Positions 22,356 through 60,622 of a stretch of 64,000 nucleotides of DNA are shown one piece after another. The number at the start of each line of letters is the position of its first letter. Positions within the stretch are counted from its first letter, which is position 1. The translations under genes were made by a program, and so were the position numbers. The stretch is from a virus (Duplodnaviria; Caudoviricetes). Where the stretch lies: IMG/VR virus record IMGVR_UViG_3300021431_004525; one strand, 5' to 3'. Under the pieces are notes generated by a model. That model did not search any database. It saw only the letters and a program-made list of their open reading frames with translations, and was not told the origin of the DNA.

Positions 22356-23772
22356 CTTTCAAGGAAACTCCATCCTTTAGGGTGGAGAGGAATTGAAAGT
22401 GGTCTTTTATTATTAAACTTATTTATTTTTTCATTTGCAAATTTACAATGTTTTCGGCAGAAAACAAAATATTTTTTGCAAAAAATATTTAATTATTGAT
22501 ATTTTTTATATTTATTAACATATTTATATATAAATTACGTTCACGACGTGAACAATACATAAATAAAATGATACTGACGTATAACATACAACTGCAACCG
22601 GATAAAACCACATATGACTACTGGGTTTCACTCCTTACAGATACTGCAAAAGCATACGACCTTTGCAGCGGCCTGCTTGCAGATAACAATACACCACTTA
22701 CCATCAAGTCAGTACATAATACATGCTATAACGTGGTACGTGAACAATTCCCCAACCTACCGGCACAATCCGTAATACGTGTACAAAAAGAAGCAATGTC
22801 CGCACTAAGAAGCAGAAAAGGCAACAAGCATAACGGAGATAAGCCAACAAAACATAACTTATCTCTCACACTCGATAAACGCATGTATTCAAGGCTTACA
22901 CCGGAAAACATTGCAATATGCGGAGGCATAAAGGGAAAACGCACCACCGTACCATTCGTCACCTACGACAAGGAAAAACAGATGTTTTCCATGTATAAGC
23001 CGTGTGACCCATTATTATTCCTACGTAGCAATACCCTATGGCTTTCTGTACCATTTAATGTACCGGATACCGTAGTATGCAATGACAACTCCATCGGTGT
23101 GGACTTGGGTATGAAACGTCTATTCGTCACATCTGAAGGTAATGCCTTCGTGGATAAGGAATACCTTCGTAATCGTAGAAAACTGCGTTACCTTAAACGC
23201 TGTTTGCAGAGTAAAGGTACTAAATCCGCAAAGAGACATTTGAAAAAAGTATCACGTAGGGAACGTAATATGTCAAGAGATATGCAGAACCGTGCGGTTC
23301 TTGCATTGATTGAATCCACCGATGCCGGTGTGATTGTAATGGAGGATTTAAGCAAGATTAAGAAAAACACGTCAAAGAGCAATGACGGATTTAAACGTAA
23401 GCGTCACAACAACGCAATTGCGCAAGTGCCGTTTGCGGAGTTCAAGACACGACTGACCAACAAGGCACACCTTTTCGGCAAGGAGGTGAAAACAGTTTCT
23501 CCGGTTTACACCAGTCAAACAGATTGCAGGAATGACAAGCGTAATGGCAAGCGTAATGGTTGCCGTTACTACTGCAAGGATGGTTTGGTATTGGATGCAG
23601 ACTGGAACGCAGCAGTCAACATAGCCAAGAAAGGCAAACACCCGTTTTCGAATATTCTTCCAGTCGACGGAAGGCTTAGGTTCTTAAACGGCAGGGTTTC
23701 GTCAATAACCCAATTGTCTGCATCCCTTAATGGGAACGGACAAGCCCCTCACTTTAGGGAGGGGTAATTGAC
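22356..23772 (+). mobile_element. IS200/IS605-family TnpB-only (IS1341-like) element
   Basis: Related subterminal hairpins CTCCATCC-TTTA-GGGTGGAG (left) and CCCCTCAC-TTTA-GGGAGGGG followed by TAATTGAC (right) flank tnpB. No tnpA. Exact ends uncertain. Confidence 0.8.
22568..23767 (+). CDS. tnpB: TnpB RNA-guided endonuclease
   Basis: RuvC I GVDLG, RuvC II VMEDL, YTSQT, RuvC III DADWNAAVNI. Start trimmed to ATG 22568. Confidence 0.92.
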   Translation: MILTYNIQLQPDKTTYDYWVSLLTDTAKAYDLCSGLLADNNTPLTIKSVHNTCYNVVREQFPNLPAQSVIRVQKEAMSALRSRKGNKHNGDKPTKHNLSLTLDKRMYSRLTPENIAICGGIKGKRTTVPFVTYDKEKQMFSMYKPCDPLLFLRSNTLWLSVPFNVPDTVVCNDNSIGVDLGMKRLFVTSEGNAFVDKEYLRNRRKLRYLKRCLQSKGTKSAKRHLKKVSRRERNMSRDMQNRAVLALIESTDAGVIVMEDLSKIKKNTSKSNDGFKRKRHNNAIAQVPFAEFKTRLTNKAHLFGKEVKTVSPVYTSQTDCRNDKRNGKRNGCRYYCKDGLVLDADWNAAVNIAKKGKHPFSNILPVDGRLRFLNGRVSSITQLSASLNGNGQAPHFREG

Positions 23773-46596: not shown

Positions 46597-46673
46597 TGGT
46601 GGACCTGGGGAATTTTGCAATCCCGACCTTCGGCTTATGAGGCCGCTGCTACTTACTTCTGAGCTACAGGTCC
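46597..46673 (-). tRNA. tRNA with CAT anticodon (Ile2 or Met), encoded CCA, atypical D and T loops
   Basis: GGACCTGTAGCTCAG...CGGC-CTCATAA-GCCG...GGGATTGCAAAATTCCC-CAGGTCC-A-CCA. Confidence 0.8.
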
Positions 46674-47928: not shown

Positions 47929-48255
47929 TCAAGCAGCCAACTTGTTAATAACCTGCTTCAACCTACTTGTCACAAAGCCTTTCGTCTTGTTGTCCTTGAT
48001 GGTGTCGCTCAACATGTCGCAGATATAGTTCAGCGTTGGAATGACATTCTCAGATGTAATGTTTCCGGTACCGACTTTTGCAGCGGCCTTGCTAAGTTCC
48101 TCTCCATGGCTTTCAATTGCAAGAATGATAGCGTCCTTATCCCAAGCATGGATGCCGGTGAATGTGGCCAATGCCTTGCCGTTCTTACACACTACTACGT
48201 TTCCGTTCTTGTCCATCACGTCAAACGTACCTACTTTTGTCACAATCTGTACCAT
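47929..48255 (-). CDS. hypothetical protein ending LAA
   Basis: 108 aa, GC-richer codons. Confidence 0.85.
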   Translation of the reverse strand: MVQIVTKVGTFDVMDKNGNVVVCKNGKALATFTGIHAWDKDAIILAIESHGEELSKAAAKVGTGNITSENVIPTLNYICDMLSDTIKDNKTKGFVTSRLKQVINKLAA

Positions 48256-48326
48256 AATTCTTAGATGTTTTTATTAATCAATGTTTAACTTAATCTGTCT
48301 ACCATACTCATTTGAGTACATGGGGG

Positions 48327-48400
48327 TGACTCCGGCGTGGCTCGAACACGCGACACCAAGTTTAGGAAACTTGTGCTCTATCCAACTGAGCTACGGAGCC
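48327..48400 (-). tRNA. tRNA-Arg(CCT)
   Basis: GGCTCCGTAGCTCAGTTGGATAGAGCA-CAAGT-TTCCTAA-ACTTG...GTTCGAG...CGGAGTCA. Canonical cloverleaf, CCA not encoded. Confidence 0.95.
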
Positions 48401-48974
48401 TGTTTGTAGGTTTTCCTATTCCACCTACCAAGCCACATGGACTTAACTCTCACCATGTTCTACCGGTCAATTCCGTTTGGGTCAGGACTAATCTAACACA
48501 CCTCTCGGCTTGTCTGCACTTTCTTAGGGTGCTTGCGGCCTAATTGAAAACCCACTATTGGTAAAACTCCTTCAGCCTATTGTCCTTAGTTTTTATTCCA
48601 TTGTCGGCATAAATAGATTTACAAAATGAGCATAAAATAGGCTTGTGGCATCAGCTAATTGACTTATATTTTCATTCTCGGCAGTGATTGAAACAAAAAC
48701 AAAGCCTTCATAGATGTCCTCTTTATATGAAAACTTGGTGCCAAAGGCTGGAAAAACTGAATTGATAAACTCTTTCAGTTGCTCTAATTCTTTTTCATTT
48801 CCACTTTTTTCGATGTTCAAAAGCTGAATCTTCATAATCTAATCTCCTATTAATTTAAATTGACACTGCAAAGTTACGAATAATTTTTTAATCTACCAAA
48901 CTTTTTTGCTTAAAGAAGTTTAATGAATTGTTAATTGATGTTAATGTGTACTCATTCGAGTACATGGGGTCTGC

Positions 48975-49280
48975 TCATGCTGCCTCCACGAAGAAGATAG
49001 GATATTTTCCACGTTCATTGTCGCAATTGTAATACCGGAAGTCATTAACGATATTCTCAAAGGTACTGCCATTGGTAAAGGCATTATCCTCAACATGTTT
49101 CTTACTTGTGGGGAAAGGTTTTTGCCACACATTGTTTACACGCATCATGCAAGGGTGCATCCATATAGGTTCACCATTCTCATAGGCTTTCTTTGCCATA
49201 GGTGCTGTAACTTGTTTCACTTTGTGAGAAATACCATCACAGTCTACCATTTGAAAAGTCATTCCTTTATAGCGTAACAT
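48975..49280 (-). CDS. phage hypothetical protein ending EAA
   Basis: FRYYNCDNERGKYP motif. Confidence 0.85.
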   Translation of the reverse strand: MLRYKGMTFQMVDCDGISHKVKQVTAPMAKKAYENGEPIWMHPCMMRVNNVWQKPFPTSKKHVEDNAFTNGSTFENIVNDFRYYNCDNERGKYPIFFVEAA

Positions 49281-49348
49281 ATTCTTATTTCTAAATAATA
49301 TTTGTTATTTGTTACTCATTTGAGTACATGGGTAGGTAATGTGGGGGC

Positions 49349-50038
49349 TTATGCGGCCTCCACGTTACACACCTTACCTTTAAGACTACTCTCTTTGTAA
49401 TAGACGGCTTCACCATTTGAGAAAACACCGCCACAGACGTAAACCTCCTCACAGATATACCGGCACACATCGTCGACCTCATCAGATAGTTTTTCTATCA
49501 TACCATTCAGCCACTTCACAAGGTTTTTCCTTTGGATTTTAGCCAATCCGGCATTCCATGTGTCACACCATGAATCGGTGACATTTTCTTGCCATGTGTC
49601 GGCAATATCATCCACAAGAGACTCTATGGAATAATTTTCAGAAATCCGGAAGTGATTACCGTAATTATCAGATATACAAATGTCCCAATCGTAGTTCATT
49701 CCGGAATAATGACCGCTATGAACATAAATCTCCTGACTGAATTCAAAATTGTTGAAATCCATGTCAGCACCCTTTTTACCGAAAGCATACCATTTAGACT
49801 TAGACGAAAGACAAGATGCGTGCATACTATCTTGATAGGAGTTACGGTCATTGTAGTCCACAGGGTCAAAACCCTTTTCCTTTGCGCTTTCTTGTGCAAA
49901 GTCGATATCGCAATCATAGTCAATGGAATCCTTAAATACCTCGACCTCCTCCTCAAGTTCATCATCATAAGCGGTTGTTGTATCGCCTACGACATAATAA
50001 TTACGTGCATTGATTTTGTGGAAATTAGGACAACTCAT
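49349..50038 (-). CDS. acidic hypothetical protein ending EAA
   Basis: 229 aa, FSNGEAVY near the C-terminus. Confidence 0.85.
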   Translation of the reverse strand: MSCPNFHKINARNYYVVGDTTTAYDDELEEEVEVFKDSIDYDCDIDFAQESAKEKGFDPVDYNDRNSYQDSMHASCLSSKSKWYAFGKKGADMDFNNFEFSQEIYVHSGHYSGMNYDWDICISDNYGNHFRISENYSIESLVDDIADTWQENVTDSWCDTWNAGLAKIQRKNLVKWLNGMIEKLSDEVDDVCRYICEEVYVCGGVFSNGEAVYYKESSLKGKVCNVEAA

Positions 50039-50260
50039 AATGTAAAGAATTTTTATTTGTTATACTTCTCGAATACATAGCCATAAGCAAGAATAGACGC
50101 AAAAAACCCTACAGAAATCGTTAAAAAACTTCTGTACGGATTGGATAAACAGAATACGCTATAGCCTAATATAGCGCACCATATAAGTGTAATAAACACT
50201 AAAAGAAATCTTTTCTTATTATTCATATACCTTAATTTTTAGATGTTATTTGAAATCGGA

Positions 50261-50403
50261 TGCAAAGGTAAGCATAATATTTGAGACCACCAAATTTTCA
50301 GCGTTTTTTTATGATTTGTTAAGGAATACCCATGAATTGTGTTAAAGTAATGTTAAACACCTCAAAATATTTGCATAATTCAAAGAAATGTATTACCTTT
50401 GCA
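50261..50403. promoter_or_regulatory. divergent promoter pair at the strand switch
   Basis: Minus TACCTTTGCA at 50261-50270 and plus TACCTTTGCA at 50394-50403, with TGTTAA boxes between. Further plus copies near 51073, 51456, 51996, 52148, 52433, 53154, 53352, 53833, 54914, 56398. Confidence 0.88.
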
Positions 50404-50468
50404 GTGTCAAAAGTTAAGGGAATGACACCCCACAAGTTTAACATCTTTAATTTATAGGAGAGACAAAT

Positions 50469-50756
50469 ATGACTAACAAGGATTTGATTAAGGCTTTTAT
50501 CAACGGCAAAGAGGCACAGAATAAGTCAATGCGTACCAATGGTACAAAGTTGTTCAGTTATTTTACTTGCATCGCTCAGAAGACTTCTGACGGCATTCTA
50601 TTTAACGTCTGCAAGTATAGCACGACAACAAGCAAGCAGCAGACCTACACACGAGATGAACTTGAGATACACGGAAAAAAGTTTACAGAAGTAGGTGCGG
50701 ACACATACATACCGCGTGGCACATGCGACCTCACACGCTACCATAAGGCAGCATAA
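50469..50756 (+). CDS. phage hypothetical protein ending KAA
   Basis: LFSY.T.IA...YSTTTSKQQ motif. Confidence 0.85.
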   Translation: MTNKDLIKAFINGKEAQNKSMRTNGTKLFSYFTCIAQKTSDGILFNVCKYSTTTSKQQTYTRDELEIHGKKFTEVGADTYIPRGTCDLTRYHKAA

Positions 50757-50876
50757 GGTTAAAATAAAATTTCATTTTTTTGTTTTTTGAATTTTTATAT
50801 TTATCTTTCCCCTTCAGTCCGTGATGGATAGAGGGGGGATTTATTTAACATTTTTTAATAAATAAAAATTGGACAT

Positions 50877-50911
50877 GTTGGAAACTATACTTCAAAGTTT
50901 CACCCTTGCCC
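50877..50911 (-). ncRNA. 35-nt hairpin RNA motif, copy C
   Basis: GGGCAAGGGTGAAACTTTGAAGTATAGTTTCCAAC behind minus promoter 50930. Confidence 0.7.
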
Positions 50912-51130
50912 TTTGTCTTTCATTGACGATACAAAGGTACAAAGAATCTTTGAAATATCCAAATAAAAATCAATTTATTTTCAACGGGTTATTGTTTTTT
51001 AACAGAAAATTAACGAATTGCAAAACTATATTAAAAAATCGCCAAAAATTTGGTAGTCTCAGATTTTTGTTGTACCTTTGCATCAGAAATCAAGGAATAA
51101 TTCCGAGATAACATAAATTAGTTTTTTAAT

Positions 51131-51391
51131 ATGGAACGTTTAGAAATAAAAAAGTACGACAAAAATTTCGGTGCATATCTTGTTATTAATACAAGTGAGT
51201 GTGAATCGTGGGCTGTAGATGGTGACAAGCCATTAATTCATGAGGTGACATCAGCCGAGGACTTTATGAATTTAGGTTTAGAGGTCTCAACCGATGGCAG
51301 ACCGTTCACAGACCTCAAAATAGGTGAAAAAGTTGCCGATATTGATTTTGGCGGTGACTATGAGGGTGTATATGTAATGAGAGTTGGTTAA
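51131..51391 (+). CDS. hypothetical protein
   Basis: 86 aa behind promoter 51073. Confidence 0.8.
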   Translation: MERLEIKKYDKNFGAYLVINTSECESWAVDGDKPLIHEVTSAEDFMNLGLEVSTDGRPFTDLKIGEKVADIDFGGDYEGVYVMRVG

Positions 51392-51496
51392 CATCTTTTA
51401 ACAATTCTGAAATGCTTTTTAACTAAAATAATTTGCATATTTCAGAAAAATGTATTACCTTTGCAGTGTCAAATTAAAAATCAATTCATATAAGTT

Positions 51497-51844
51497 ATGG
51501 TCAGAACAGAATATCAGATAAAATTGAAAAGCGGCTTATATGTCGGCTTAGTAAATTTCGGCAGAACCTATAAGGCTTGCAAGAAGGCTTGCCGTTTGAG
51601 TGGAATCACGGAAGATACCGCAAAGCGTCTCGCAATGGATTGGGATGGCGAATTAACAGAGTTTACGCTTCTCCCGTGTGTGATGTCCAACTATGGCGAA
51701 GGATGGGACGTGGAATGTTTTTGCGCCACGAAAGAGGAGGCAAAGGCAGACCTTCAATCCTACCGTGAGAATTGCCGTGATGCGGCATTCCAAATAAAGT
51801 GGAAATGGAGTGAAAGATACATCAGCCTCAAGGAGGTTGCATAG
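51497..51844 (+). CDS. hypothetical protein
   Basis: 115 aa with NYG.GWD.E and L..YREN motifs. Confidence 0.8.
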   Translation: MVRTEYQIKLKSGLYVGLVNFGRTYKACKKACRLSGITEDTAKRLAMDWDGELTEFTLLPCVMSNYGEGWDVECFCATKEEAKADLQSYRENCRDAAFQIKWKWSERYISLKEVA

Positions 51845-52019
51845 AGATACGCGAAGGGGTGGCTACCCTTCTATTAGGAAAAGTAACAGAGCCTAACGTA
51901 GAAGCAAGACCAAAGTGTTTACCCTCAAAACATTTTTTAACAATTCATTTAAGTTTCTTTAGCACGAAAAAGTTGCATAATTCAGATTTTATTCGTACCT
52001 TTGTAGTACAAAAATAAAG

Positions 52020-52054
52020 AGGTAGGAGTGAAATCCTAAAGTATGGTCTCCGAC
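52020..52054 (+). ncRNA. 35-nt hairpin RNA motif, copy D
   Basis: AGGTAGGAGTGAAATCCTAAAGTATGGTCTCCGAC behind promoter 51996. Confidence 0.7.
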
Positions 52055-52504
52055 ACGAGCCAATTAAAATTGTTAATATTCCTTAATTTTTAACATTCTT
52101 TAACAAAAATAACTGGGCAAAAATTTGTATATTCCAAAAAATTGTCGTACCTTTGCACTATCAAAAATGAATTAGTAATAACCCTTTAATATTAATAAGG
52201 TATGGTAGCAATAAATAAAAATCATCTGAAAATTGGACGTTACACAATCCAACATGATTGGAATGAAGGTTTTGTTGTCCTTGATGAAGAAGGTCAGCAG
52301 TACGGAAGTGGCTACGACCATGTATGTGATGCAATCGAACAAGTTTTGATGTATAACGACTGAGAATTGTTAAAGGAGGTTAAAACCAGTGTTAAAAACT
52401 GTAAATCCCTTGGTTATTCCAAAAAATATTCGTAACTTTGCATCGTCAAAATAAGACAAGTAATTCACATTAAGTTTAATTCTAAAAAATAGGAGATTTA
52501 AGTT

Positions 52505-53044
52505 ATGGCAAAAAATTCAGTTGAAACCGCAATTCGTAACGCTGCAAGCAGCAAGGTGGCAGGCAAGTTCAATCTTCCGCAGTACAAGAAAGAAGGTACA
52601 AAGCATTATGACGAGCGACAGAAGGCACTTCTGCACAAGCGTATCTGTGAGGAAATCGTAGCCTTTGCAGACAGCCACAAGGACATCCCATTCTATTTCA
52701 TCCTTCAAGTAGGTGTCTCTAAGGGTGCTTTCAAAATGTCGGAGTTTGAGAAGGGTTACAAGCAGTTCAAGGCTTGCAAGGTGGAGCAAGTTCACATGAT
52801 GGGCATGGAGTACAACAAGTACAACGGACTTGAGGGAAAGAAGATGTCAGACGTGACCATCCGTTTGGTGATGCGTTACTACGAGAAAGTTAGCAGTGAT
52901 TTCGTGACGTTCATCAACGACCTCAACAAGTCCGAGAAATTGGGCAAGCAGTGTGGGGCACGCGGCAATTACGAAGCACTCTGCAAGAACCTTAATATCC
53001 CCGTCAAGGAGACCGAGGACAAGCCAATGGCAGATGCAGCCTAA
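52505..53044 (+). CDS. hypothetical protein ending DAA
   Basis: 179 aa, own promoter at 52433, GC-richer codons. Confidence 0.88.
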   Translation: MAKNSVETAIRNAASSKVAGKFNLPQYKKEGTKHYDERQKALLHKRICEEIVAFADSHKDIPFYFILQVGVSKGAFKMSEFEKGYKQFKACKVEQVHMMGMEYNKYNGLEGKKMSDVTIRLVMRYYEKVSSDFVTFINDLNKSEKLGKQCGARGNYEALCKNLNIPVKETEDKPMADAA

Positions 53045-53045
53045 A

Positions 53046-53061
53046 TGTTCCACGTGGAACA
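53046..53061. promoter_or_regulatory. parS: parS centromere-like site (perfect)
   Basis: TGTTCCACGTGGAACA matches the canonical bacterial parS consensus TGTTNCACGTGRAACA. Confidence 0.88.
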
Positions 53062-53177
53062 TCAACCAAAGGGGAAGGGTATAACGCTCTTCCCTTAATT
53101 TTTTTAACTATGTTAAAAGTGTTAATTTGCTTGCGTAATTCAATTATTTTTTGTACCTTTGCAGTAGAAAAATTAAA

Positions 53178-53212
53178 AGGTAGGGGTGAAACTCTAAAGT
53201 ATAGTCTCCAAT
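53178..53212 (+). ncRNA. 35-nt hairpin RNA motif, copy E
   Basis: AGGTAGGGGTGAAACTCTAAAGTATAGTCTCCAAT behind promoter 53154. Confidence 0.7.
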
Positions 53213-53403
53213 ACACCCCATTATATAAATGTGAATTTTATTTAATATTATATGAATGTTATATAATTTTAACATTTTCGTACTATACTATCAGAAATGT
53301 TAATTTAATGTTAAACATACGAATTTCCTTGGTTATTTGAAAAAATTGTATTACCTTTGCATCACAATTAAAAAACAAGTTAAACATTCAAATATTAAAT
53401 AAT

Positions 53404-53661
53404 ATGTTCGGAAAAGGTTCTAAATATAGTTTCAATGGTGACGGCAATTTAGATTGTCAGTTTCTCACCTCCACCTTTGAGGATGGATATCCATATTCTG
53501 TAGGTGTCGTGAATCATACCAAAAAAACGGTTAACCCTGTTCATGGCTACCACTACCCAAACAGATGCGCAAAAGGTCTTATGAACTATGCGCTTAAATT
53601 AGGCTACACCTATGAGGACAGCGAAATGCCAAACAAATTGAATAAAACAATTAAAAACTAA
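53404..53661 (+). CDS. hypothetical protein
   Basis: 85 aa behind promoter 53352. Confidence 0.75.
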   Translation: MFGKGSKYSFNGDGNLDCQFLTSTFEDGYPYSVGVVNHTKKTVNPVHGYHYPNRCAKGLMNYALKLGYTYEDSEMPNKLNKTIKN

Positions 53662-53882
53662 ATGATATGATATACTTTGTAAATGGTAAGGCTAAATTTG
53701 CCTTCGGTGACAAGTCAATGAACGACCATGCAAGACAAGTCATGGATAATCTGAAATGTAAAGAAACCGGAAAAAGATTTGCTGCTTAACATTCTTTAGC
53801 ACGGAATATTTGCATATATCAGATTTTATGACTATCTTTGCACCATCAAATTTAAGTTTAACGTTTTAATTCATTTAAAGTT

Positions 53883-54407
53883 ATGGCATACGATATTAAC
53901 AACATCATGGCAAAGGAAAACGCAATGCGCGACCCTAAGAACGTAACAGAATGGAAACAGCAACGAGAAATGTTACGCGACTATCTGATACCCATCAGCA
54001 CTGCTGAAAACGTCTCTGTGGGCGAAATATACGGCTTCTGCCCCTATATCATTTATGTAAGGATGGACGCACTGAAGCGAGAGGATTGGCCGAATAACAT
54101 CGCCGAAAATTCCATCTATATCGACTTTAAAATAGACCTTTTTAACAAAAAGGTGGAAGTACATCAAAATGGGCATATTTGGCTTTCACCATACGACAAA
54201 ACAACACCAAAGTACAAGTATCTCGCCATGAAGTCAATGCAAGACGTATTGGTCGACAATGGTGGCAAGAAGTTCCGCAAACAGGGCTATAAGGACATTA
54301 AAGACCTTGCCAACAAAATGCAGAAGTATTACGCACAAGTCATGGAAGCCGTCAATGACTACACCGATGGCTATCCATACAAACAAGGAACAAAACAAGC
54401 GGCATAA
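53883..54407 (+). CDS. hypothetical protein ending QAA
   Basis: 174 aa behind promoter 53833. Confidence 0.88.
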   Translation: MAYDINNIMAKENAMRDPKNVTEWKQQREMLRDYLIPISTAENVSVGEIYGFCPYIIYVRMDALKREDWPNNIAENSIYIDFKIDLFNKKVEVHQNGHIWLSPYDKTTPKYKYLAMKSMQDVLVDNGGKKFRKQGYKDIKDLANKMQKYYAQVMEAVNDYTDGYPYKQGTKQAA

Positions 54408-54519
54408 ACAGATTTTTTAAATTAATACTATGTTGTTAGTCCGTTCAGTCCGAGAGGATAGGACGGATTTTATTTTACTTACATTTTGAAACATAAATTA
54501 ACATATTATCAATGGATGG

Positions 54520-54554
54520 GTCGGAGATTATACTCTAAGGTGTCACCCTTACCA
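54520..54554 (-). ncRNA. 35-nt hairpin RNA motif, copy F
   Basis: TGGTAAGGGTGACACCTTAGAGTATAATCTCCGAC at the 3' end of the non-coding unit from promoter 54778. Confidence 0.65.
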
Positions 54555-54595
54555 ATCATCCATCGTTGGTTTTACAACTCCGAAACTCGTTTGTG

Positions 54596-54738
54596 TGACT
54601 CATTGGGGAATCGAACCCCAAAGGTGAACATTTTTGCCGACAGCACCATCTGTTTCCGACTACTCATGCGCTGACACCATACTTTATCATAGGATTGGTA
54701 GTCCTAAAAGCCTCCAAGCCAGCCTTATCGTTTGAGCC
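54596..54738 (-). ncRNA. tRNA-like RNA (acceptor stem plus T-arm, enlarged body)
   Basis: 5' GGCTCA can pair with 3' TGAGTC-A. Perfect T-arm TGGGG-TTCGATT-CCCCA. No canonical D or anticodon arms. Confidence 0.55.
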
Positions 54739-54971
54739 TTTGTTATTTGAAAGAACGCCTTTTATTTCTTTTGACGATGCAAAGGTACAAAATAATCTTG
54801 AATTTCTATGTTAATTGACTGTTAAAAATTCGTTAAAAAACGTTCAATTGTTAAATAAACTAAATCCACTAAAAATAAATTCATTTTTTCTTGCATATAT
54901 CAGTTTTTTTCCGTACCTTTGCATCGTGAAATTAAAACAAATAGTAATAACTCTTTAATACATTATTTATT

Positions 54972-56075
54972 ATGACACAGATTTTGAATATCAACGGACA
55001 GAGTAACGTGAGCGTTAATCCTAACACAGAGACGGGCGCACAGCGTGTAGCATGGCAGCAGTTCGGTACAATCTGCGAGAAGGGTGCAACCATCCACGAC
55101 GTTATGGCAGACGTAACAAGTGAAAACCGCATTAACTATGAGGTTGGCGAAATGCCACTGATGCGTGTACCTTCTGAAATGGTTGAGGCTATCCGCAAAG
55201 GTGAGGCTTTCGATTGGAATCCGTCAGTGTCCGACATCATCAGCACCCATAAGGCTACGCTGCGCACTGACAATAACGACACACTTGGTATCGTAGGTAA
55301 GGGCTACGGAATCGTGCAGAACAGCAAGGCTTTCGACTTCATGGACTTCATTAAGGAGGCAAGCGGTAGTGAACCCGTTATCGAATCCTATGGCGCACTT
55401 GGCTATGGCGAACGTATGTTCATCACTGCCACACTTGGTGAGGATTCGTATCTTAACCCTAACGACGCAATCAAGAACTATGTGGTGTTCACTAACTCAC
55501 ATGATGGCAGTGGCGGTGTCATGGCTTTCTTCACCCCGATTCGTGTGATTTGTCAGAACACGCTGAACATGGCTATTAAGGGCTGCGCCAACAAAGTGGT
55601 GTTCAAGCACACTTCTAAGGTCGACGAGCGTCTTGATTGGACTATCGAGCGCAACCGCAAAATTGCTGCTGAACTTTTCAGCAAGTCAGTGAAATTTAGC
55701 GACAAGTTCATGGAGCGTATGCTTGGACTCAAGGAGGAGACCATCACTGCTGAATATGCACGAGACTTCGTAGGCAAGTTGTGTCTGACTGCTCCCGCCT
55801 TTGAACTTTGGAAGAAGGCTGACTTCAAGGCTGACCACGTTGAGGAAATCAGCACACGGACAAAGAACATTATGGCAGCCCTGACGGACAGCATCGAGAA
55901 TGGAGTAGGACAGGAGTACAATCGTGGCACAAAGGTGTGGCTGCTGAATGGTGTGACTACCTACCTTCAGAATGAGAAAAATTGGAAATCTCAGGAAGAC
56001 AAGTTCAACGCTATGATGTTCGGTAGCGCACAGAAGAAGGTCGAGGATGCTTACCAACTGCTGATGGCTGCGTAA
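54972..56075 (+). CDS. DUF932/DUF945-family phage/plasmid protein
   Basis: LGIVG..Y.IVQN..AF.F, G.L..GER.FI, TNSHDGSG, TPIRVICQNTL. Confidence 0.9.
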   Translation: MTQILNINGQSNVSVNPNTETGAQRVAWQQFGTICEKGATIHDVMADVTSENRINYEVGEMPLMRVPSEMVEAIRKGEAFDWNPSVSDIISTHKATLRTDNNDTLGIVGKGYGIVQNSKAFDFMDFIKEASGSEPVIESYGALGYGERMFITATLGEDSYLNPNDAIKNYVVFTNSHDGSGGVMAFFTPIRVICQNTLNMAIKGCANKVVFKHTSKVDERLDWTIERNRKIAAELFSKSVKFSDKFMERMLGLKEETITAEYARDFVGKLCLTAPAFELWKKADFKADHVEEISTRTKNIMAALTDSIENGVGQEYNRGTKVWLLNGVTTYLQNEKNWKSQEDKFNAMMFGSAQKKVEDAYQLLMAA

Positions 56076-56091
56076 GGTTTCACGTGGAACA
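56076..56091. promoter_or_regulatory. parS: parS site (15/16)
   Basis: GGTTTCACGTGGAACA immediately after the DUF932 stop codon. Confidence 0.8.
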
Positions 56092-56439
56092 TACACGGAG
56101 GGGGATGTGGTAGGGCTACTGCACCCCCTCCCTATGTACCCCCTACCTACGTATCCACCCTCTCAGCCACCCCCTATGTTTCCGGCTGACGGTAGCACAC
56201 GGTTTGCTCTGCAAATCTTTGAAAAAATTCTGGAAAAAAATTAAGGGGGTGGGGGTTATTCTATTAAAGGTTATTTCAAAAAAAATTCCAGAAAAATTTT
56301 TGAAAATCTAAAATATGACATATATTAAACAAATGTACTAAATATGTAAATTTAAGTTTCTTTAACTAAAAAGATTTGGCTATTTTGGCAAAAATGAGTA
56401 ATTTTGCATTTGAAATTATTTTAAAATGAAAAAATACTT

Positions 56440-58182
56440 ATGGAAGTACAACAACAGAAAAAAATCACAGAAATTTTCAACACAATTGGTTGGAAACGTC
56501 AAAATGCTGAACGTTTAGTAATTGAAGAAAATGAACAGCGCGGTTATGAATGGGGGACTCAGCAGTTCAAAGAATTGATGGAAGACATTGAAGAACAAAT
56601 AGCGTCTAAATCCCCTAAAGAAATATATTTATCAACATTTCTTAGTCACCAAGAAGCAAATTCTCCATTTACTAAGATATTTGATGGTAATCAACGTTTA
56701 ACTACAATTTTAATACTATTAATTGCTCTTCGTGATTATATCAAGCACAATTTTGAAGAGAACTTATATTATAATGACATTATTCGTAGAATTGAAGAAT
56801 GTATTTTTAATTCTAACAATGAATGTATTATGATTTTGCAAAACGAAGATAACAATTGTCTTACTGATATTCTCAATAACAGTGATTCTGTGTTCAAGAG
56901 TGTATATATGTTTAAAAACAATCTTGTTAACAAAATGTATCGTAACTGTTATAATTACATACACATGCGCACAGAACAATGTCCTGATTATCCGTTTTTA
57001 CTTTTTACAAAAGGCATTGAAAATGTAGTAATGGCAGAAGAACGTGCAACAACAAAAAATGAGGCAAGGCGTTTGTTTGGTAGAAAGAACGCTTCTGGTA
57101 TTAATGTAGCAAAAGGAAATGTAATTTCCTCTTTTATTTGTGGTTTAATTGATTTATATACTGACAGTCGTGATGAGTTCATTCACGTCAAGACTAAATT
57201 TGATGGTGCAATGTCTCGTATTCCGTCAAAAGAGTACACTGACTTTTACCGTCTTTTTCTTTATTATTTAAAAGACACATATTTAACTCCGTCTCAAACA
57301 CAAAAGGAAATTGAAAAAATCACTAAATCGGCATTAAAGGGTACTGAAAAGAATGACCATTTTAGTAACATTTCTGAATTGATTGACTGTATTGACCGTT
57401 TCAGTAAATTTATGTCTGAAGTTAGTCATAAGCGTTTAAGTGAGTTTGCACCTTCGCATAAGATTAATCGTCTGCTTTCATTAACACCAGATGAAATAAC
57501 AATTACGATTACGATGATAGATTTATTTACTGACAAATATTCTAATTACAACATTGATAATGAAGATAAATATCAAATATTAAATGGTGTAATGAAAATT
57601 ATCGTAAGAAGAATGTTCGCGCCAAATTCTACTAACCATTCGGAAAAGACTATGCTTAATGTAATGGGAAACATCCTAACTTTGAAGGGGTGTAATGAAC
57701 ATTTATATCAGACGTTTAAACGTTACATGTCTGGCGAAACAAACAAGGCACTATGTTATGGCTATTTGACTGAAAGTGACCTTATAGAAAGAGTATCTAA
57801 AATTCCGGTTTATAGGCGTTTAGGTTCTAGGATGCAAGTGTTAAAATACTTATTCCATAACTTAAACAAATATGTTAATAGTGGTATCGAACAATATGTC
57901 TACACTGACTTTAATGATATGACTATAGAACACATTAAATCACAAAATGAATTTTCATCGAAAGACCTTTTACAACACACAATTGGTAATCTTACACCAC
58001 TTACACGAAATAATAACTCACGCTGTAAAAATCGTCCATTCAATGATAAAAAGGCTGTATACCTTAATAGCGGAATAAAATTAACAGAAAGTGTCGGCTC
58101 AAAGGCATATTTCAATAATGAAGAAATTGTTAATAGGAGTAATGAACTTGCCCCATTAATTATGGAAATTACAAGATTATAA
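56440..58182 (+). CDS. GmrSD/SspE-like DUF262 + DUF1524 (HNH) nuclease
   Basis: QRGYEW, DGNQRLTT, F...NASG. C-terminal TIEHI, IGNLT.L...NN and F.DKK..Y. Confidence 0.88.
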   Translation: MEVQQQKKITEIFNTIGWKRQNAERLVIEENEQRGYEWGTQQFKELMEDIEEQIASKSPKEIYLSTFLSHQEANSPFTKIFDGNQRLTTILILLIALRDYIKHNFEENLYYNDIIRRIEECIFNSNNECIMILQNEDNNCLTDILNNSDSVFKSVYMFKNNLVNKMYRNCYNYIHMRTEQCPDYPFLLFTKGIENVVMAEERATTKNEARRLFGRKNASGINVAKGNVISSFICGLIDLYTDSRDEFIHVKTKFDGAMSRIPSKEYTDFYRLFLYYLKDTYLTPSQTQKEIEKITKSALKGTEKNDHFSNISELIDCIDRFSKFMSEVSHKRLSEFAPSHKINRLLSLTPDEITITITMIDLFTDKYSNYNIDNEDKYQILNGVMKIIVRRMFAPNSTNHSEKTMLNVMGNILTLKGCNEHLYQTFKRYMSGETNKALCYGYLTESDLIERVSKIPVYRRLGSRMQVLKYLFHNLNKYVNSGIEQYVYTDFNDMTIEHIKSQNEFSSKDLLQHTIGNLTPLTRNNNSRCKNRPFNDKKAVYLNSGIKLTESVGSKAYFNNEEIVNRSNELAPLIMEITRL

Positions 58183-60010: not shown

Positions 60011-60622
60011 ATGAAAAGGAATGTTGGTTTATTTTGTGGAACATTTAATCCCATACATAATGGTCATTTAATGATGTGTAATTACATATTGGGTCATTAT
60101 GGTCTTGATGGCATTATTTTGGTTGTAAGTCCCGATTCTCATTTCAAGAAGCATACCCATTTGGCTAAATTCGATACACGTATTAGTTTATGTGCTTCTG
60201 CCACCATTGATGACGATAGGCTTGTGGTATCGTCTATTGAAGATGAATTACCGAAGCCGTCATATACATATCAGACCTTGGAGTATTTCAAGAAAAAATA
60301 TGATAATATAGAGTTCGTTCTTATTATTGGTGCTGATAATCTTGTTGGCTTAAGTGAGTTCAAGAATGTTGAATACATTTTATCGAATTTTAGGATAATG
60401 GTATGTCCTCGCAATGGTATTGACTGTAAGATGTATGTAGATGAGTTATATAGGAACTTCGGTGATATTGATATAAAAAGTATAGAGTTAATTGAGGGCA
60501 TTCCTGATGTTGGTTTATCATCCACATTTATAAGGGATGAGGTTGCCAAAGGGAAATCAATTAAATACTATGTTCCTGAGAATATTGAAACATCTGTGGA
60601 AGTTGAATATGGTTCATCGTGA
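60011..60622 (+). CDS. nadD: nicotinate/nicotinamide-nucleotide adenylyltransferase
   Basis: GTFNPIHNGH, SYTYQTL, IIGADNL, LSSTFIR motifs. Confidence 0.95.
   Translation: MKRNVGLFCGTFNPIHNGHLMMCNYILGHYGLDGIILVVSPDSHFKKHTHLAKFDTRISLCASATIDDDRLVVSSIEDELPKPSYTYQTLEYFKKKYDNIEFVLIIGADNLVGLSEFKNVEYILSNFRIMVCPRNGIDCKMYVDELYRNFGDIDIKSIELIEGIPDVGLSSTFIRDEVAKGKSIKYYVPENIETSVEVEYGSS

Follow-up and report, generated by a model that had tools for sequence, protein, structure and literature searches.

The window analysed here, 64,000 nucleotides (nt) of the IMG/VR virus record IMGVR_UViG_3300021431_004525 (Duplodnaviria; Caudoviricetes), contains two 16-mers, site 1 and site 2, of the chromosomal parS type, the loading site of the partition protein ParB. 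From their sequence and conservation we consider it likely, with a probability of roughly 65 %, that both are functional loading sites for the ParB of a bacterial host and have been kept by selection. The new point is that parS tracks a single-copy non-coding element rather than the gene of the DUF932 family beside which it is usually found.

Sequence and position of the parS sites

When compared with the parS consensus TGTTNCACGTGNAACA, site 1 had no mismatches and site 2 had one (Table 1). At the base composition of the window, 0.00023 exact and 0.010 one-mismatch sites would be expected by chance per 64 kb, and dinucleotide shuffles gave a mean of 0.18 sites with up to three mismatches tolerated. 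The original prediction, made from the letters of the window, had placed two parS 16-mers at 53046 and 56076 about 3 kb apart and near the centre of divergent transcription. Both sites proved real, the measured distance between them is 3030 nt, and they lie 2.7 kb (site 1) and 5.8 kb (site 2) from the divergent promoter point at ~50.3 kb. A comparison with the cumulative guanine-plus-cytosine (GC) skew, which the prediction had proposed, gave a minimum at 48–50 kb, near the divergent promoter point, and the same figures of 2.7 and 5.8 kb apply.

Site 1 begins 1 nt past the TAA of an open reading frame (ORF) of 179 amino acids (aa), and site 2 starts directly behind the TAA of a 367-aa ORF, the DUF932 gene. 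The adjacency to stop codons that had been claimed for both sites therefore holds in the window, at no more than 1 nt in each case, but not as a conserved feature of relatives: site 1 lies 40 nt past the stop codon in contig L001, and in L006–L009, L012 and L013 the site lies ~70–90 nt past the stop, with a terminator in between. The order at site 1 is stop codon, parS, terminator, and the same order was found at the first parS of a further relative, G071 (790–850), where the preceding gene shares only the C-terminal motif YExLCxxLNI with the 179-aa protein (E 0.01).

Conservation in related phages

Relatives were found in IMG/VR by the proteins flanking the sites. It was found that parS recurs in them at orthologous places, next to a DUF932 protein that is only 43–56 % identical. 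The two contigs most similar to the window retain both sites, and site 1 is kept as TGTTCCACGTGAAACA in L001 and L002. Orthologues of site 2 occur in L001–L004, L006–L009, L012, L013 and G071; there is one site downstream of the DUF932 gene in L006–L009 (DUF932 protein 54 % identical) and likewise in L012 and L013 (43 %). The same arrangement recurs in nine or more independent contigs, which come from different samples. Across ten related contigs (1.85 Mb), 12 sites with no more than one mismatch were found at orthologous places, together with two core-mutated look-alikes, against ~0.3 such sites expected by chance. The reversed control word gave 0 matches in all whole records scanned, and the totals of parS in such scans were one in G005 (351 kb, CheckV 100 %), one in G003 (279 kb) and two in G001.

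Among representatives of five lineages, pairwise identity was 89 % in the parS columns, compared with 38 % just upstream and 51 % downstream. Variation within the site falls mostly at positions 5 and 12 (free N) and at the outer position 1, as in known parS sites. Conservation in related phages, the lack of which would have counted against the original prediction, was thus observed across independent metagenomes, at one or two sites per genome of 279–351 kb. This pattern indicates that the sites, few and clustered, are kept by selection at a fixed locus.

The look-alike TGTTGCACTTGAAACA is present in two distant relatives (G001:C1:92279-92294, L195; G072:C1:98227-98242, L196). In G001 it sits within a 554-aa ORF. 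Rather than parS, it probably represents conserved coding sequence.

A single-copy non-coding element beside parS

Site 2 is directly followed by a conserved element of ~200 nt, which contains, in order, a hairpin, CCCTAYGTAYCCCC repeats, GGCACACGGTT, two A-tract/TTCCRG/A-tract boxes and a GGGGGTGGGGG run (G run). The hairpin was found at the same place in relatives. A strict motif scan with CCTAYGTAWCCCC was too narrow and was replaced by an nhmmer model of the element from which parS was left out. The model had a single match in each of three sequences: the window, the complete genome G005, where the match lies next to the only parS, and the complete genome G072, which has no parS. The fragments L005 and L029 also have the element and lack parS. 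In G071, two exact parS sites lie 100 nt apart, the second directly before the element, and the DUF932 gene is ~17 kb away.

DUF932 neighbours parS in most relatives but not in all. The idea of parS as a general companion of DUF932 was rejected, as 40 bacterial DUF932 loci (220 kb) contained no parS of good quality (two mismatches or fewer). These loci and the distance of ~17 kb in G071 together link parS to the element and not to DUF932. In the lineages examined, the element is universal and single-copy, with parS as an accessory placed against it; the absence of parS from the complete G072 likewise marks its function as accessory. The slot downstream of the element varies: a GmrSD-type nuclease gene occupies it in the window, L009 has a gene for an HNH protein there and L012 has unknown and ART-PolyVal genes, so the element is not simply the promoter of one conserved gene. 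RNAalifold paired only the parS palindrome itself in an alignment of the element and found no covariation, and Rfam identified only two tRNAs in the window.

Source genome and the likely reader of the sites

Short genes, for the most part of unknown function and mainly on the minus strand, make up the window, which has a plus-strand island at ~50.3–61.8 kb. In the region 50–56 kb, nearly every small gene has its own promoter of the form TTTG-N19-TAnnTTTG, which corresponds to the primary-sigma consensus of Bacteroides, and motifs of this type track gene orientation across the whole window. The closest contig, G001 (124.9 kb), has 93–99 % protein identity and was rated 32 % complete by CheckV, which implies a full genome of roughly 350–390 kb. 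The contigs of more distant relatives are 216–351 kb long and two are rated complete. One large terminase (TerL) was found in each of five relatives tested, and no tyrosine integrase was found in G001–G005. Judged by these sequence features, the source is a lytic-looking jumbo phage of Bacteroidota. A megaplasmid was ruled out by the one TerL per relative and the lack of ParA and ParB. A megablast search with 50–58 kb against cultured-phage records returned no match.

As had been predicted, tblastn with Bacteroidales ParA and ParB queries detected neither parA nor parB in the window. The relatives G001–G005, one of them CheckV-complete, contained no ParB_N domain (PF02195), no match to a Bacteroidales ParB protein and no ParA (PF13614), which rules out a self-encoded ParABS cassette. 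The only protein of the ParB/Srx fold nearby is the GmrSD_N domain of the nuclease, which is lineage-specific and without known parS activity.

On the host side, a metagenome-assembled genome of a candidate host (G006, Paludibacteraceae) carries three exact copies of TGTTCCACGTGGAACA within 3 kb and canonical ParAB elsewhere in the genome. Among sampled genomes of its order, the Bacteroidales, 43 of 61 have one to four exact sites, usually clustered, with TGTTCCACGTGGAACA the commonest form. Canonical ParB was also found in the B. thetaiotaomicron control genome, and ParABS homologues and parS clusters have been reported for gut Bacteroidetes (PMC10197239). The original prediction had the phage recruiting either host ParB or its own. 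It is supported in part: candidate hosts have both ParB and the identical 16-mer, and no ParB was found in the phage relatives, which makes host ParB the likely reader. A perfect parS entering a Bacteroidales cell should, we infer, be bound by host ParB.

Comparison with known systems

The use of host sites by a phage is not new in kind. In PMC2731898, phi29 and Nf are described as carrying host-type parS used through Spo0J (Meijer et al. 2005 as summarised there), with five parS sites, host Spo0J and spore entrapment in phi29. The likeness is that a virulent phage without a ParB of its own carries parS of the host type. Host Spo0J handles the phi29 and Nf genomes via parS, and the same use in the jumbo phage is suggested by sequence. 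The phi29 genome measures 19 kb and has five dispersed sites, whereas the jumbo phage genome is ~350 kb (~20 times larger) with one or two sites clustered in the early region, and only in the jumbo phage is one site fixed beside a single-copy non-coding element. In phi29, Spo0A boxes and spore entrapment also couple the use of the sites to sporulation, whereas the likely host of the jumbo phage belongs to the Bacteroidota, a phylum not known to form endospores. Promoters of the Bacteroidota type thus point to such a phylum, in which coupling to sporulation is unlikely to apply.

The chromosomal parS sites of Bacteroidales share with the phage sites the identical 16-mer and the occurrence as few (one to four) clustered copies; they differ in being chromosome-borne, whereas the phage sites are on a virus, a replicon without parAB. 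The cassettes of plasmid-prophages (P1 ParAB–parS, N15 SopAB–sopC and mycobacteriophage parABS; see also PMC7157519) likewise place a centromere-like site on a phage genome, presumably for extrachromosomal inheritance. These phages are temperate, however, with their own ParA and ParB and their own site specificity, while in the jumbo phage no ParA, ParB or integrase was found and the specificity is that of the host.

Proposed function and alternatives

The presence of parS without ParB suggests that the phage most likely borrows the protein from its host. Upon entry of the phage DNA, host chromosomal ParB would recognise the two parS sites. By analogy with studied ParB proteins, it would close as a clamp bound to cytidine triphosphate and spread over the early region, and the phage genome would become a client of host ParABS without encoding any part of it. 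The element adjoining site 2 may be a cis-acting site that ParB helps to organise. More tentatively, and with considerable doubt, these jumbo phage genomes could be organised from a centre made up of parS and the element, with the latter serving as a phage cis-site (a replication origin, for instance). Host ParB clamps would then be loaded beside it, and an integrase-less 350-kb phage would be positioned or inherited like a mini-chromosome in Bacteroidota.

The original prediction had proposed segregation in a carrier state, coating of first-entering DNA or titration of host ParB as putative purposes. The most likely purpose, by analogy, is that phage genomes are positioned or partitioned, as they replicate or persist, while the host grows. 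In practice this would mean that infection is prolonged or that the phage, which lacks an integrase, is carried as an episome. A single chromosomal parS reportedly stabilises a plasmid in B. subtilis as a client of host Soj/Spo0J (work attributed to Lin and Grossman, 1998); that plasmid was engineered, whereas the jumbo phage is a natural virus. The sufficiency of one site in this plasmid, the phi29 precedent and the lack of lysogeny and partition genes in the phage are together the grounds for favouring partition. Loading of SMC as the purpose was set aside as less likely, as two gut Bacteroidetes are reported to have no homologues of known condensins (PMC10197239).

Several observations weigh against functional loading of host ParB. 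The complete G072 and the fragments L005 and L029, which keep the element without parS, indicate that parS is dispensable. Both sites of the window fall within transcribed early genes, in the 3' untranslated part before a terminator or hairpin, where transcription could evict ParB. Some copies are decaying, with a core of CATGTG in L006 and two mismatches in site 2 of L001. The phage DNA might also be modified.

Host ParB could instead load for a local purpose other than partition, with the clamp array marking or insulating a phage cis-site (for example an origin) or damping early transcription as a KorB-like roadblock. Such a role would account for parS abutting the element, which is seen in most lineages and does not require DUF932 to be nearby, and for the location of parS, in the window as in G005, within a divergent island dense in promoters. 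It is harder to reconcile with the persistence of the element without parS in three relatives, with the lack of a DnaA-box cluster near the sites, and with the placement of the element in G005 (in a 20-kb strand island and away from the main GC-skew switch) and in G072 (with ~30 kb between it and the nearest switch), and we regard it as unlikely. An origin mimic with DnaA boxes was rejected, as the window has only two exact boxes (12.5 and 30.9 kb), none near parS. Alternatively, the sites could act as decoys, with replicating phage genomes multiplying parS, draining host ParB and disturbing the segregation or replication control of the host to the benefit of the phage. Tens to hundreds of phage copies would outnumber the one to four sites of a host genome, and the lack of phage partner proteins would be expected. 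However, a decoy could lie anywhere, yet across lineages the site stays in one place next to one element, and one or two sites per 350 kb would be a weak sink early in infection; this makes a decoy improbable.

A role without ParB would cast the 16-mer as the operator of an unrecognised phage DNA-binding protein, as an RNA hairpin at 3' ends or as a recombination hotspot that swaps early cassettes. Consistent with this, the site that follows the YExLCxxLNI gene in the window and in G071 sits between stop codon and terminator, and site 2 of the window abuts a stop codon too. The two sites are 100 nt apart in G071 and bracket 3 kb including DUF932 in the lineage of the window, which fits insertion between repeats, and the downstream slot is variable. 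Against a hairpin, it is the sequence that is conserved and not the pairing: RNAalifold found no compensatory change, and TGTTCCACGTGAAACA on the sense strand leads to a C–A mismatch in the hairpin. No candidate phage binder was found, and all 14 specified positions equal those of host parS exactly, so that binding by host ParB is expected whatever else binds. A ParB-independent role consequently seems a poor explanation. Finally, the matches could be due to chance or to host DNA introduced by misassembly, to which the rise in GC to 0.43 at 54–56 kb might point. With only 0.0002 exact sites expected per 64 kb, the same arrangement in at least nine independent contigs, and flanks composed of phage genes with phage-specific promoters and terminators, the chimera that the original prediction had allowed for is contradicted; the conservation across contigs rules this explanation out for practical purposes, and we give it very little credence.

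Features around the sites and other observations

The coordinates of the features are collected in Table 1.

Table 1. Features at and around the two parS sites of the window
Feature	Position	Strand	Description
Early gene, 179 aa	52505..53044	+	Stop abuts site 1; C-terminus ...NYEALCKNLNI...ADAA
parS site 1	53046..53061		Perfect palindrome TGTTCCACGTGGAACA, the commonest chromosomal parS among sampled Bacteroidales genomes
Intrinsic-terminator-like hairpin and T run	53071..53106	+	Directly after site 1; read from sequence
DUF932 gene, 367 aa	54972..56075	+	Stop abuts site 2; Pfam PF06067 (1.4e-36), phrog_1221
parS site 2	56076..56091		GGTTTCACGTGGAACA; one mismatch, at the outermost base
G/C-rich hairpin GGAGGGGG...CCCCCTCC, without T run	56097..56131	+	Directly after site 2; read from sequence
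Conserved single-copy non-coding element, ~200 nt	56098..56301	+	From alignment and nhmmer model
GmrSD-type nuclease gene (DUF262 + DUF1524)	56440..58182	+	Pfam; occupies the variable slot past the element and is a neighbour only

The 179-aa protein matched no Pfam or PHROG family, and its Atlas matches were all sub-threshold. For DUF932, a profile search against PDB sequences gave no match, the AlphaFold model reached a mean predicted local distance difference test score of only 66.7, and Foldseek returned no match at E ≤ 0.001. Judged by titles and abstracts, papers that mention DUF932 appear to use it only as an annotation.

Downstream of the sites, a NadD-like nucleotidyltransferase of the cytidylyltransferase family is encoded at 60011–60622. 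By their sequence, this protein and the GmrSD nuclease are candidate tools of inter-phage competition or counter-defence. A TnpB gene (IS605 OrfB/Cas12f-like) at 22496–23767 on the plus strand runs against the surrounding minus-strand genes, and at this locus GC is locally raised and the skew reversed.

Seven plausible early genes in 47929–56075 encode proteins that end in Ala-Ala (KLAA, VEAA, VEAA, HKAA, ADAA, KQAA and LMAA). Such ends are found in only 10 of the 217 ORFs of at least 60 aa in the window, and DUF932 orthologues elsewhere end in LAA, SA, IA or VA. These ends could be ssrA-like C-terminal degrons on early proteins.

A host-type promoter with the conserved leader GGTAGGGGTGAAACTCTAAAGTATAGTCTCC is present in three copies (51973–52056, 53131–53214 and, inverted, 50867–50914). 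The two direct copies are 81 % identical, and L001 and L002 also keep the leader after parS site 1. The repeat could represent a small RNA or a shared 5' leader.

Two tRNA genes lie on the minus strand at 46600–46673 and 48325–48400; tRNA-Arg(CCT) was called by both ARAGORN and Rfam, the second tRNA by Rfam only. The region 46–48.6 kb has raised GC, and its ORFs are poor. The 20-nt word TACTCATTTGAGTACATGGG occurs three times (48305–48324, 48949–48968 and 49313–49332). On the minus strand it reads CCCATGTACTCAAATGAGTA and forms a hairpin right after tRNA-Arg and two of the genes with Ala-Ala ends. The word resembles the CCCTAYGTAC repeats of the single-copy element.

Wider occurrence and significance

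In a census of IMG/VR, which may include prophage flanks and is a lead rather than a result, exact TGTTCCACGTGGAACA was found in at least 120 contigs with a GC content of 23–71 %, compared with 3 contigs for a reversed control of the same composition. Among the 120 matches listed (L071–L190), no ParA or ParB was found in the fetched loci with Bacteroidales queries. One family, with gaatTGTTCCACGTGGAACAatgg in contigs of 54–105 kb, is recurrent among the listed matches. The use of an orphan host-type parS may be a general strategy in phages, and the marked surplus of the exact word in viral contigs points to one that may be widespread and unsurveyed.

If borrowing of host ParB is correct, the principle known from phi29 would extend from a sporulation trick to another phylum and to a genome ~20 times larger, with a defined cis-element of 200 nt as a target for experiment. 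Jumbo phages of the gut and rumen that carry no lysogeny genes would gain a simple way to be positioned or inherited in dividing cells, which would bear on the persistence of such phages together with their hosts.

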